18,410 nt of DNA from Erysipelotrichaceae bacterium MTC7 (GCA_001695645.1 LVZN01000026.1:1-18410), one strand, 5' to 3'. Shown: positions 10,378 to 16,629, counted from the first letter of the stretch. The notes: a model not told the origin generated them from the sequence alone. Program-made: numbers and translations.

Positions 10378-11961
10378 TTACTTACAACCTTCATTGTTGT
10401 ATTTGCTAATAATCACTTCCGCACATTTCAATCCATCAATGGCACTGGATGTAATTCCTCCAGCATATCCACTTCCTTCACCAATGGGGTAAAGGTGAGC
10501 TGTTGAAGTACTCTCCATCTTCTCATTGCGACAAATTCGGATAGGAGAGGAAGATCGTGTTTCAACACCGGTTAAAATTGCATTTCCATTTTTGAATGCC
10601 GCATTCTTTTTTTGGAAAGCTTTAATTCCTTCTTGCATTTTATATACAATATTTGCAGGAAGCAGTTTACGCAAGTTGGTGTAGGTTACACCCAAGGGAT
10701 ATGAAGGTTCAATCATTTCCCCATCACTTGCATCTTCTAAAAACTCACTTACACGTTGTGCAGGTGCTTTGTAGTTAGATCCACCAAGTGTATACGCCAA
10801 TCGTTCCAATTTTTCTTGAAATTCCATACCTTTGAAGATACCTTCGCCATAATCACGTTCATCTACTTGCACGAGTATTGCAGCATTTGCATTTTCTTTG
10901 TCTCGTGCATAGTTAGACATTCCATTAACGACAACGTGTCCTTCTTTACTTGTTGCTGCGACGACTTGTCCTCCAGGACACATACAAAACGTATAAACAC
11001 CAGTTCCTTCAACGTTATGCGTTAAGCGATAACTTGCTTGTGGCAAACTATCATGTCCAGCATAGCTATGATACAAAGCCTCATTGATAGCCTTTTGTGT
11101 ATGTTCAATACGCACTCCAACTGCAAATGGTTTACTTTCCATCAAGACACCTTGTGCGTGAAATGCTTGAAAACTATCACGACTGCTGTTTCCTAAAGCA
11201 AGAACGACCACATCACTGTAAATCTCTTGTTTGTTGACGATGATTCCCTTACATACATCCGCTTCAATTAATAAAGCTTCTACTTTGGAATCAAAGTGGA
11301 TACTTCCACCTAAGGCAATGATTTCTTCACGCATACGCTTTGTGACTTCCACAAGAATATCACTACCAATATGTGGATATGCATCATACAAAATTTCATT
11401 TGGTGCACCATGTTGGACAAACATATCATAAACGCGTTGGACTCTTACATCTTTGGTCCGTGCCGTCAATTTTCCATCACTAAACGTTCCAGCTCCACCT
11501 TCACCAAATTGGATGTTGCTTTCTTCATTTAACACTCCCTTTTGATAAAATGCATCAACATCCTTGATGCGTTTTTCAACTTGGCTTCCTCGTTCGAACA
11601 CGCGTGGCCGATATCCCATTTGTGCCAGTTGCAATGCACAAAACATACCGGCCGGACCAAATCCAACGATAATTGGTCGTGTGTGAAGTTCGACGATTCC
11701 AGGATGCAAAGGCGCTTGTGCTTTTGGTTCCAGTTTTCTAACATTGGTTAGTTTTTTTGCTAAGATTGCTTTCTCATCTTTGACACATACATCAATGCTG
11801 TAACTAAAGTATAACTGATGATGACGAGCATCAATGTTTTTACGGTATAAAGCAAAAGATTGAAGATCACTTGCGCGAATCTTCAACTTTTTTAAAATCT
11901 TTTTTTGTAGGTCGTTTTCACTTTCCTGTAAGGAAAGCTTTACTTGATCAAGACGTAACAT
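10378..11961 (-). CDS. Uncharacterised FAD-dependent oxidoreductase-like protein (COG2509-type)
   Basis: 527-aa ORF. Rossmann dinucleotide motif IIVGFGPAGMFCALQLAQMG, followed by GEGGAGTFSDGKL and a C-terminal GEGSGYAGGI. These are characteristic of the widespread 'FAD-dependent protein' family of unknown function. The ATG overlaps the stop of the upstream gene (TAATG). Confidence 0.8.
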   Translation of the reverse strand: MLRLDQVKLSLQESENDLQKKILKKLKIRASDLQSFALYRKNIDARHHQLYFSYSIDVCVKDEKAILAKKLTNVRKLEPKAQAPLHPGIVELHTRPIIVGFGPAGMFCALQLAQMGYRPRVFERGSQVEKRIKDVDAFYQKGVLNEESNIQFGEGGAGTFSDGKLTARTKDVRVQRVYDMFVQHGAPNEILYDAYPHIGSDILVEVTKRMREEIIALGGSIHFDSKVEALLIEADVCKGIIVNKQEIYSDVVVLALGNSSRDSFQAFHAQGVLMESKPFAVGVRIEHTQKAINEALYHSYAGHDSLPQASYRLTHNVEGTGVYTFCMCPGGQVVAATSKEGHVVVNGMSNYARDKENANAAILVQVDERDYGEGIFKGMEFQEKLERLAYTLGGSNYKAPAQRVSEFLEDASDGEMIEPSYPLGVTYTNLRKLLPANIVYKMQEGIKAFQKKNAAFKNGNAILTGVETRSSSPIRICRNEKMESTSTAHLYPIGEGSGYAGGITSSAIDGLKCAEVIISKYNNEGCK

Positions 11962-12995
11962 TAATATAAGTTCCTTAAAATTCTAAATTCTTTTCTTTGT
12001 GAAATACTATAAATGAAATATGCAAGATCCACAACAATAACCATGACCACAAGTGTCGTAAAGAAATTGTTTAATGAAATTGGCAATAATGTAATCATCC
12101 ATGCAAAGAAAGCAAATAAGAAGTAAATCAAAATACTATACGAACGATAGTTCACAAAGCGACGGTGATACTTTATGTTGAATGTTAAAATCAAACAGAA
12201 ACCGTAATACAAAAGTGGAATCAACGAGATAAACATATAGGTACTTGCAGTTAACAAGCCAAGTCCTTTGATAAAGAATGTTTCCAACAGTAAAAGTAAA
12301 GCACTCACAAGCATGCGTTTGATATAAAACTCACGGTTTGTTGATACCGGTGTTTGTGCAATATACGCACCAAGTAAAGTAAAAATCGTTCCATAGAACA
12401 GTCCATTACGTGCACTGCCAAAAACCGTTAAGTACCCTTTTACAATTTGCTTTAGTACAGGTATTTCATACAACACAGGTTTGTATACATTAATCATCAT
12501 TCCCACAATAAATAACGCTAAGCCAATTTCCAATACACGAATGGGACGTAATTTATGCATCATGATGTACACCAATACAGTTGATAACATCATTGCTGGA
12601 AACACCCATAAGTGATAGTAACTTCCTGTAAAGAAGAAGTTTCGAACAAGTGTTCCAAATGCTGCCAAACGAAACTTAGCTTGTGCCAAATCATAGACAA
12701 TTGGAACGATGTAAATCGTAGTCCAAATCAAATATAGTTTTACTTGACGCCATAAATAGCCTTTTAAATATAAACGATTTCGTGGCTCACTTTCTTCATG
12801 TAAATCAAGTTTGCGAAAGAAAAAGTAGGCACTTGCGACAAAGAAAAATGGCACAGCAGCTCTCCCAAGCACAAATGAGATGAAAAAGTTTGCGATATCG
12901 CTAATTCCTTTAAATGGTTGCAAGTAAGCGAAAATCGCAAAAATTGCAGCAACCAGTTTGAGTATATCAATTAGATAATTCTTATGGTTCTTCAT
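11961..12995 (-). CDS. Polytopic membrane protein homologous to the N-terminal membrane domain of VanT (acyltransferase-3 fold), stand-alone
   Basis: 344-aa ORF that is hydrophobic throughout (about 10 predicted helices). Motifs RAAVPFFFVASAYFFF, YHLWVFPAMM and ARNGLFYGTIFTLLGAYI are colinear with the VanT membrane-domain motifs as I recall them (RVAVPFFFMISGYYVF, YHLWYFPALI, TRNGIFFTPLFLCLG). AAGGAG lies 6 nt upstream of the ATG and overlaps the racemase stop. Confidence 0.8.
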   Translation of the reverse strand: MKNHKNYLIDILKLVAAIFAIFAYLQPFKGISDIANFFISFVLGRAAVPFFFVASAYFFFRKLDLHEESEPRNRLYLKGYLWRQVKLYLIWTTIYIVPIVYDLAQAKFRLAAFGTLVRNFFFTGSYYHLWVFPAMMLSTVLVYIMMHKLRPIRVLEIGLALFIVGMMINVYKPVLYEIPVLKQIVKGYLTVFGSARNGLFYGTIFTLLGAYIAQTPVSTNREFYIKRMLVSALLLLLETFFIKGLGLLTASTYMFISLIPLLYYGFCLILTFNIKYHRRFVNYRSYSILIYFLFAFFAWMITLLPISLNNFFTTLVVMVIVVDLAYFIYSISQRKEFRILRNLY

Positions 12996-13004
12996 AAATT
13001 CTCC

Positions 13005-15216: not shown

Positions 15217-16591
15217 ATATACCTCTTAATTTATCCACAACTTTATCTAGTTGCATGCCTCTACTTCCTTTAATCAATAGCGCAATGGAATCTTGTTTCA
15301 ATGTCTGTAAGTACTCCACAATGGCATCATGATCTTGCAATACTGTATACACTTTGTTTGGCTGTACTTGTCTAGCCCCTTCTACATATGCTGAAGAAAG
15401 CGGACCATAAGCAATCAGTTCATCAAACGCTGTTGATGCAAGATATGCACCAACTTGTTTATGATACATGATTTCGTCTGGTTCTAAATCCAACATATCA
15501 CCTAAGATGACAACTCGATAGTCACCATTAATTTGTTGAAAGGCATCAATTGCTGCTTTCGCACTTTCCGGGTTGGATTTATAACTGTCGTTTAAAATCG
15601 TAAAACGATCCAATGTTACAACTTCATTACGCATACCCGTTGGTTCATAATTCAAAAAGCCCTTTTGGATATCTGCATCGCTGATCTTCAACTTTTTCAA
15701 ACAAGCAATGGCTGCTAAAGCATTCAGTGCTTGATGTTTACCAATCGTTTCAATTTGAAAGTTCAAAGATGTTACATTTGTTGTAAATGAAAGCGTGCTT
15801 TGGTTTTGGTCAAAGGATGTTAATCGAATTTGATTATCTTCATGTTCTCCATAACGAACACATTCTACCTTATCTACTTGTTTTTCTTTAATGATGTTTG
15901 CAATGACAGAATCATCTCCGTTATACACGAAAAGGCCATCACTAGGCAGGGCATCCATAATTTCCAATTTTGCACGTGCCACATTTTCCAAACTCCCTAG
16001 CGTTGCCAAATGGGCAGCCCCTACACCGGTTAGAATGGACATCGTTGGTTGTACCATCGGGTTTAAAAATGCAATATCCCCTATATTTTCAACACCCATT
16101 TCACAAACGATGACATCCGTATCACGACTTGCTCTTAGCAATGTAATTGGTACGCCAATTTCATTGTTTTGGTTACCTAGGGTTTTGGTAACGTTATAAA
16201 CATACGACAATCCAGCTGCTAAAATATCTTTGGTTGAAGTTTTTCCATTGCTTCCTGTAATTCCAATCACTTGGCAGTCTAAGGATGAACGATACGCTTT
16301 AGCCAAATCTTGCAATGCTTGCACACTATCTTTGACAAGCAAGGTAGCCATGGAACATGTCGCATAGGCTTCATTATCAATAATTGCTAGAACCGCTCCT
16401 TGTTGATGTGCACTTTCGATAAAGGCATGCCCATCGACACGTTCGCCAGTCAATGCAATGTATATATTATCTTGTTCGATGATTCTTGAATCCGTCGAGA
16501 CACCAGCAACCCTTTGGTCAACTGCTGTACCATTTAATTGTAACGAACCACCAATCATTTTTTGAATACCTTGAATGGTATTGGTTATCAT
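15209..16591 (-). CDS. murF: UDP-N-acetylmuramoyl-tripeptide--D-alanyl-D-alanine (D-Ala-D-X) ligase
   Basis: 460-aa Mur ligase. P-loop GITGSNGKTSTKD, NNEIGVP, CEMG, and C-terminal-domain motifs NDSYKSNP and VILGDMLDL. AGGAGG lies 7 nt upstream of the ATG. The stop overlaps the ligase start by 8 nt (ATGAGTAA). Confidence 0.93.
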   Translation of the reverse strand: MITNTIQGIQKMIGGSLQLNGTAVDQRVAGVSTDSRIIEQDNIYIALTGERVDGHAFIESAHQQGAVLAIIDNEAYATCSMATLLVKDSVQALQDLAKAYRSSLDCQVIGITGSNGKTSTKDILAAGLSYVYNVTKTLGNQNNEIGVPITLLRASRDTDVIVCEMGVENIGDIAFLNPMVQPTMSILTGVGAAHLATLGSLENVARAKLEIMDALPSDGLFVYNGDDSVIANIIKEKQVDKVECVRYGEHEDNQIRLTSFDQNQSTLSFTTNVTSLNFQIETIGKHQALNALAAIACLKKLKISDADIQKGFLNYEPTGMRNEVVTLDRFTILNDSYKSNPESAKAAIDAFQQINGDYRVVILGDMLDLEPDEIMYHKQVGAYLASTAFDELIAYGPLSSAYVEGARQVQPNKVYTVLQDHDAIVEYLQTLKQDSIALLIKGSRGMQLDKVVDKLRGIYE

Positions 16592-16620
16592 AGGTAATCC
16601 TCCTAATAAATATCCTACTA

Positions 16621-16629
16621 ATTATAGCA
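16621..16629 (-). promoter_or_regulatory. Extended -10 promoter element (TGCTATAAT) for the murF operon
   Basis: The minus strand reads TGCTATAAT, with 29 nt between its end and the murF ATG. That leader contains the AGGAGG RBS. The -35 region (TGTTCA) is weak, which is compatible with an extended -10 promoter. Confidence 0.55.

Follow-up and report, generated by a model that had tools for sequence, protein, structure and literature searches.

The DNA analyzed here (the window) spans 18,410 bp and makes up one entire contig of Erysipelotrichaceae bacterium MTC7, a Breznakia-like gut bacterium. It carries a minus-strand cluster of five genes (products OCN04373-OCN04377) for a MurF, a VanG-like ligase, a VanT-like racemase, a VanT-type membrane protein and a flavin adenine dinucleotide (FAD)-dependent protein. 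Comparison with related loci indicates that this is probably a chromosomal, vertically inherited operon for the constitutive synthesis of cell-wall precursors ending in D-Ala-D-Ser, orthologous to the ligase and racemase locus of Clostridium innocuum. Coordinates of the cluster, its signals and its neighbors are collected in Table 1.

Table 1. Genes and signals of the five-gene cluster, with neighboring features of the window.
Feature	Coordinates	Strand	Remarks
Extended -10 promoter element TGCTATAAT	16629..16621	minus	read from sequence; ~30 nt 5' of the murF ATG
Leader with AGGAGG ribosome-binding site of murF	16592..16620	minus	short
murF	16591..15209	minus	460 aa; first gene of the cluster
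VanG-like D-Ala:D-X ligase	15216..14146	minus	356 aa; predicted D-Ala-D-Ser maker
VanT-like pyridoxal phosphate racemase	14159..13005	minus	384 aa from ATG 14159; predicted substrates Ala and Ser
AT3-family membrane protein, homologue of the VanT N-terminal membrane domain	12995..11961	minus	344 aa; multi-pass
VP0956-family FAD-dependent protein	11961..10378	minus	527 aa
Intrinsic terminator	10330..10363	minus	9-bp stem 10363..10338, 8-nt loop, then T8
TMEM175-type potassium channel gene	9714-10298	minus	between operon terminator and pyr operon
Pyrimidine operon pyrB, pyrC, carA, carB, pyrK, pyrD, pyrF, pyrE	101-9500	minus	complete; junctions overlap or abut
ISL3-family transposase	16826-18198	plus	two open reading frames in different frames, 290 aa and 157 aa

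Anatomy of the operon

All five products are recognized far beyond chance (Pfam and NCBIfam E-values of 1e-30 to 1e-139). MurF, a UDP-MurNAc-tripeptide--D-alanyl-D-X ligase, scores 379.2 bits on TIGR01143 (cut-off 288.6) and possesses all three Mur ligase domains (PF01225, PF08245 and PF02875). The genes are tightly packed: murF overlaps the ligase gene by 8 nt (ATGAGTAA), the racemase gene, read from ATG 14159, overlaps the ligase gene by 14 nt with a GGAG inside the ligase 3' end, the racemase and membrane-protein genes are separated by a 9-nt gap in which the racemase stop codon overlaps an AAGGAG (TAAGGAGAATTTATG), and the membrane-protein and flavoprotein genes share 1 nt in TAATG. A mechanical list of open reading frames (ORFs) starts the racemase at TTG 14177; ATG 14159 was preferred, with the GGAG 7 nt upstream.

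No convincing -35 element was found for the promoter element TGCTATAAT, which is missing from the output of a consensus promoter scan because the scan requires one. Breznakia blatticola shares the promoter block, a conserved stretch that extends from ~16662 as far as the murF start codon. At the other end the terminator begins 15 nt past the flavoprotein stop codon, with a folding energy of -11.5 kcal/mol; its z-score, -1.8, is modest. In the region, five consensus terminator-like sites compare with 4.8 expected in shuffled sequence, and promoter-like sites stay under the shuffle expectation; both signals are therefore credible by position and conservation, not by statistics, and none of the three internal minus-strand terminator-like sites has a real T-run. 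An Rfam scan of the whole window, including the leader, gave no family match, and a tRNA scan gave none. A short leader without a riboswitch fits constitutive expression, and from this arrangement we infer a single transcript with translational coupling of the five genes. The initial annotation had claimed the five gene identities, their bracketing by one extended -10 promoter and one terminator, the four junction geometries and a constitutive, housekeeping-style expression: the identities are borne out by the profiles, the signals are all present, each junction was re-read and is exact, the internal terminator-like sites, which could have spoken against co-transcription, lack real T-runs, and the mode of expression fits the leader.

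The ligase, the racemase and the membrane protein

Among the NCBIfam models the ligase is matched best by VanG (NF000091), with 464.5 bits under a curated cut-off of 495, which exceeds its generic Ddl score of 388.8 by 76 bits; for a homologue with the ordinary residue signature (L006) the order is reversed and the generic Ddl model scores above VanG. The VanC/E/L/N-type model NF000207 gives 383.7 bits (cut-off 520) and the VanC models 293-326, against 464 for the VanG model. Likewise, the closest solved structure is VanG (PDB: 4FU0, 350 bits), followed by VanA with 283 and DdlA with ~262. Sequence identity amounts to 48% with VanG, 49% with the C. innocuum ligase and 89% with that of B. blatticola.

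The ligase was compared in one alignment with VanG, VanA, DdlB of E. coli and some 95 retrieved homologues, a sample that is biased because the genome scan used FFDYDAKY as its search pattern. Its residues Asp244, Phe253 and Arg325 match Asp243, Phe252 and Arg324 of VanG, and only the Asp and the Arg discriminate against ordinary Ddl. Both are common only to VanG, VanA and the clade of the window, and are missing in ~70 other Ddl homologues and in DdlB, where the equivalents are Ile201 and Leu282; ordinary ligases carry Gly, Leu, Thr, Ile or Val at the Asp244 position and Met, Leu, Gln, Phe or Ile at the Arg325 position. Meziane-Cherif and colleagues (2012) are said to have singled out these three VanG residues and the Arg as a determinant for D-Ser, and in the work of Healy and colleagues (1998) Arg322 of VanC2, the Arg at the Leu282 position, is reportedly a determinant of D-Ser use. 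Phe253, within the FFDY motif, was tried as a marker and dropped, as it aligns with Tyr210 of DdlB rather than Tyr216 and FFDY is common in ordinary Ddl. Tyr216 of DdlB is conserved in the ligase, and the DdlB triad Glu15/Ser150/Tyr216 is intact. In length the omega loop agrees with that of VanG, not with the longer loop of VanA, and its Lys-Tyr is retained. A neighbour-joining tree placed the ligase in an Erysipelotrichaceae clade (bootstrap 82) within a Van-type supergroup (bootstrap 82), instead of the grouping with housekeeping Ddl that would have spoken against a Van-type assignment. From the residues and the orthology described below we infer specificity for D-Ser.

The best model for the racemase is vanT-G-Cterm (NF033131), with 399 bits under a cut-off of 460, followed by the alanine racemase model TIGR00492 (alr) with 333. 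A sequence search of the PDB returned VanT_G (PDB: 4ECL) with 241 bits, in a near-tie with an Alr at 240.6. At the active site the racemase carries Tyr-Ser-Asn-Asn, where VanT has Tyr-Ser-Thr-Asn and Alr has Ala-Pro-x-Tyr/Gln/His; three of the four residues of the VanT network Tyr543-Ser567-Thr695-Asn696 match, including the equivalent of the specificity-determining Asn696. In VanT_G, exchange of this residue (Asn696Tyr) lowers serine conversion 30-fold, and the enzyme retains alanine racemase activity (PMC4542195).

The membrane protein finds only two NCBIfam matches, vanT-CELN (positions 4-319, 106 bits, E 1.4e-30) and vanT-L-mem (72.8 bits); it also matches Pfam Acyl_transf_3, and a hydropathy scan gave ten windows, several of them overlapping. 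The fused AT3-racemase architecture of VanT is not found here, as the two parts are encoded by separate genes with the racemase first. A VanT split into separate adjacent membrane and racemase genes, in the opposite order to that of MTC7, is described for vanL (PMC4542195). The VanG- and VanT-like character proposed in the initial annotation for the ligase, the racemase and the membrane protein is borne out by profile, structure-sequence and active-site comparisons.

Related gene pairs and trios were observed in more distant loci. Two distant murF-ddl-alr trios (L004 8630-12141 and L005 8612-12144) have ligases 37-40% identical to that of MTC7 that keep the Asp and Arg signature, and racemases in which Ala takes the place of Tyr543 and positions 695/696 read Pro-Asn; judged by these residues, the trios may represent an intermediate state between Alr and VanT. 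Micromonosporaceae and related actinomycetes possess a consistently linked alr-ddl pair (L009, L012-L015, L018-L020, L023-L026, L028, L030, L032-L034, L037, L038, L040, L042, L057, L058 and L077), with Leu/Gln at the Asp244/Arg325 positions of the ligase and mostly His at the Asn696 position of the racemase (Asn in four loci).

Distribution of the cluster and its link to Clostridium innocuum

To survey the genomic context, the five proteins were compared by tblastn with every locus that had been fetched, and gene tables of the loci were read alongside. The closest named relative, B. blatticola, has the same five genes followed by TMEM175-pyrB-pyrC-carAB as in the window, its TMEM175-type gene (L102 6481-7068) occupying the same place. 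Breznakia pachnodae has the same five genes in the same order, with pyrC-carA-carB next but neither the TMEM175 nor the pyrB gene, and one 2.67-Mb Erysipelotrichaceae genome also possesses all five. In two other lineages the five genes are interrupted by a single additional ORF, small or unknown. ORFs without a Pfam match lie between racemase and membrane protein in L082 (157 aa, 10263-10736) and between membrane protein and flavoprotein in L105 (309 aa, 10274-11203). The cluster is reduced to murF, ligase, racemase and flavoprotein in L002, which lacks the membrane protein, and to the core of murF, ligase and racemase in L106. In Anaerorhabdus (L104) a distant flavoprotein paralogue lies immediately upstream of murF. 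Since some relatives do without it, the membrane protein does not appear essential to the core. The gene murF leads the cluster in all relatives, and the flanks of the cluster differ from genus to genus.

The orthologous locus of C. innocuum was reached through the ddl primers published for multilocus sequence typing of this species (PMC11409672), both of which match human-gut contigs whose proteins fall into clusters named [Clostridium] innocuum. These contigs carry murF, ligase, racemase, AT3 protein and flavoprotein in the order seen in MTC7. Both ligases have the same Asp/Arg signature and both racemases the same Tyr-Ser-Asn-Asn. Model scores are also close: the C. innocuum ligase gives 458.6 bits on the VanG model, likewise below 495, against 376.6 on generic Ddl, and the racemase gives 441 on the vanT-G model. 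MTC7 has the C. innocuum-type arrangement, in which the gene of a soluble VanT-like racemase comes directly after that of a chromosomal VanG-like ligase; VanXY and VanRS are missing from both loci. Differences lie in protein identity (34-53%), genus and flanking genes. Because five-gene synteny and residue signatures are shared, the MTC7 operon is, as far as sequence comparison reaches, an orthologue of the experimentally studied C. innocuum system and hence one more member of a kind already described.

These loci also bear on what had been claimed about the composition of the cluster. The initial annotation regarded it as peculiar to this locus, which does not stand, since the same order occurs in C. 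innocuum, Breznakia and other Erysipelotrichaceae; the proposed recruitment of murF is overstated, because murF-ddl-alr forms the conserved core across the group. The stated lack of vanXY and vanRS holds for the window: no VanY or VanX domain and no two-component regulator was found among its ORFs with Pfam and NCBIfam, and the remaining ORFs are only the pyr genes, the TMEM175-type channel and the ISL3 transposase. The clusters of the relatives likewise contain no VanY or VanX domain.

The flavoprotein matches PF21688 (FAD-depend_C) with 250.9 bits and is a full-length homologue of Vibrio VP0956 (PDB: 3NLC; 472 bits, residues 1-517). Its AlphaFold2 model has a pLDDT (predicted local distance difference test) score of 88, and Foldseek returned a template-modeling (TM) score of 0.92 to 3NLC only, with generic flavoenzymes at TM ~0.3. 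Its gene adjoins the cluster across Erysipelotrichaceae in several arrangements. Orthologues share ~50% identity in Lactococcus garvieae, Turicibacter and others, and 46% in Vibrio, and no shared theme was found among the flavoprotein neighbors outside the cluster (Lactococcus, Turicibacter and one other contig). Since close orthologues outside the family adjoin unrelated genes, a D-Ser-specific role is unlikely, and the protein probably does not act on D-Ser specifically. The Anaerorhabdus paralogue (L104 4185-5546, from a metagenome-assembled genome; 453 aa, 24% identity) contains PF21688, lacks the N-terminal DUF8436 and lies directly upstream of murF-ddl-alr, a second independent adjacency of this family to the cluster.

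Other neighbors were noted in passing. The 213-nt gap upstream of pyrB contains no PyrR-binding leader or other Rfam element. A VanZ-like gene lies 2.3 kb upstream of the cluster in L081 (3873-4337), the gene immediately downstream of it in L081 and in L082 (13463-14767) encodes a polysaccharide deacetylase with an Ig-like domain, and a polysaccharide deacetylase is found upstream of it in L105 (3144-4460).

Interpretation and comparison with known systems

Anatomy, signatures and orthology are shown by the sequence comparisons, and from them the following pathway is proposed. One constitutive extended -10 promoter would drive all five genes. The VanT-like racemase would make D-Ala from L-Ala, and its active-site Asn would let it produce D-Ser from L-Ser as well. 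The separate VanT-like membrane protein would increase the availability of L-Ser, as the membrane domain of VanT is described to do. The VanG-like ligase would then join D-Ala and D-Ser, and MurF would attach the dipeptide to UDP-MurNAc-tripeptide. VanXY and VanRS would be dispensable because this would be the cell's own pathway, with no competing D-Ala-D-Ala pool and no need to sense an antibiotic. The expected phenotype is intrinsic low-level vancomycin resistance, and by the C. innocuum standard it would comprise UDP-MurNAc-pentapeptide[D-Ser] as the predominant precursor and a minimal inhibitory concentration of vancomycin of ~8 mg/L.

Several observations weigh against D-Ser synthesis by this operon. 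Ligase and racemase both stay under the NCBI curated VanG and VanT cut-offs, the position of VanG as sister of the ligase has a bootstrap of only 21, the GenBank label of the ligase is D-alanine--D-alanine ligase, the racemase has Asn instead of Thr at the Thr695-equivalent position and is tied with an Alr in the PDB search, and the membrane protein is missing in L002, L104 and L106. The absence of further genes applies to one 18-kb contig, and the genome may hold a second ddl, alr or murF, or vanXY or vanRS. Part of this would suit an ordinary housekeeping murF-ddl-alr operon making D-Ala-D-Ala, whose likeness to Van proteins reflects shared Bacillota ancestry and whose membrane protein and flavoprotein are passengers: scores lie above the generic Ddl and Alr cut-offs, the DdlB triad is intact, and the source annotation, the tie and the core without a membrane protein in some relatives all agree with it. 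We nevertheless consider such an operon unlikely, since no ordinary Ddl sampled has either the Arg or the Asp that the MTC7 ligase carries where DdlB has Leu282 and Ile201, respectively; the racemase combines the Asn specific to VanT with the Tyr/Ser network; a neighboring membrane protein of VanT type speaks for serine; and the orthologous C. innocuum pair is reported to make D-Ala-D-Ser by David and co-workers, whose study is cited in PMC11409672. The D-Lac ligase VanA also contains the Asp/Phe/Arg triad (Asp244, Phe253 and Arg325 in MTC7), which signals "not D-Ala" more than "D-Ser". That the ligase makes D-Ala-D-Lac, like VanA or the intrinsic ligases of Leuconostoc and Lactobacillus, is nonetheless very improbable, as no relative's cluster contains a VanH-like D-lactate dehydrogenase, the omega loop has the VanG length with Lys-Tyr and not the longer VanA form, and the ligase is accompanied by a racemase of serine type and a membrane protein of VanT type.

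The insertion sequence (IS) next to the operon raises the question of a mobile van-type island brought in by the ISL3 element. The transposase lies ~230 bp upstream on the opposite strand, the contig end (18410) falls in or just past it, and homology with B. blatticola stops at ~16662, ~35 nt upstream of the -10 element, so the IS may have replaced the native upstream region. A search for inverted repeats as IS ends found none. Against acquisition, B. blatticola has the same cluster followed by TMEM175 and pyr genes and B. pachnodae has it followed by pyrC-carA-carB; the cluster is family-wide with sequence divergence that parallels the taxa, the GC (guanine plus cytosine) content of the operon is the same as that of its flanks in the window, and the transposase, split across two frames, is probably a pseudogene. 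A plasmid search returned no record with a ligase of more than 48% identity. The best was a Paenibacillus trio of alr, VanY-like and ligase genes, seen on Paenibacillus amylolyticus plasmid pY5S7-1 (L103 5021-8053) as alr, a VanY-like carboxypeptidase and a VanG-like ligase with 48% identity and both Asp and Arg; the stretch shown has no membrane domain or two-component regulator annotated. Arrival as an island is accordingly hardly credible, and the locus is vertically inherited, as the Breznakia synteny, the uniform GC content, the lack of a close plasmid relative and the split ISL3 gene indicate.

A wider proposal combines these observations, although we regard it as quite doubtful. Much of Erysipelotrichaceae might build its wall from D-Ala-D-Ser precursors through a constitutive murF/VanG-like/VanT-like module, without an ordinary D-Ala-D-Ala ligase; this module, with its unfused racemase and membrane genes, might exemplify the sort of chromosomal source that supplied the vanG and vanT resistance genes; and the VP0956-family flavoprotein, present in at least three arrangements, might be an unrecognized component of this precursor branch. 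If the proposed D-Ala-D-Ser synthesis is correct, intrinsic glycopeptide tolerance would be characteristic of the common gut Erysipelotrichaceae as a family instead of being special to C. innocuum, with a bearing on the reshaping of gut communities by vancomycin, on resistome surveys that score such housekeeping genes as "vanG" or "vanT", and on the origin of the vanG-type ligase and VanT racemase. For the widely conserved VP0956 flavoprotein family, the locus offers a reproducible, genetically testable genomic association.

Of the acquired systems, the vanG operon of Enterococcus faecalis BM4518 (vanURS; vanG, vanXY, vanT) provides the nearest ligase structure and profile and, with VanT_G, the best racemase profile. 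It differs in being acquired and inducible, with VanXY and a three-component regulator (PMC4405338), and in having one fused membrane-racemase protein (PMC4542195) where the parts are separate in MTC7; MTC7 possesses a murF and a flavoprotein gene that the vanG operon, with the genes listed here, lacks. The vanL operon resembles the MTC7 locus in its split vanTm and vanTr as adjacent genes (PMC4542195). In MTC7, however, the order of racemase then membrane protein is the reverse of the VanT domain order, the vanL-specific models match weakly (72.8 of 675 bits and 239.7 of 750 bits), and the VanXY and VanRS of vanL are absent from the locus. VanC of Enterococcus gallinarum and E. casseliflavus is also species-intrinsic and chromosomal, with a D-Ala-D-Ser ligase and a serine racemase, but its ligase belongs to another lineage. 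VanC strains keep a normal Ddl and hence need VanXYc and VanRS. The housekeeping ddl-murF operons of Bacillota (Paenibacillus L010, Finegoldia L029 and L016) share the adjacent, co-oriented murF and ddl; their order is ddl then murF, and they carry Met at the Arg325 position and Gly/Val at the Asp244 position.

The closest counterpart remains C. innocuum, for which serine-ending precursors and intrinsic vancomycin resistance are stated in PMC11409672, citing David et al. 2004 (J Bacteriol 186:3415). In the searchable literature no description was found of the five-gene architecture or of a murF, membrane protein or flavoprotein at the C. innocuum locus, and nothing relevant on the roles of the ligase residues discussed above, on the Breznakia wall or on MTC7. 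David and co-workers are said to have attributed the C. innocuum phenotype to the pair of ligase and racemase, with ~93% pentapeptide[Ser], and the published description reportedly covers these two genes only. The MTC7 operon is therefore not a new system, because the mechanism proposed for it and its central gene pair are already known from C. innocuum.

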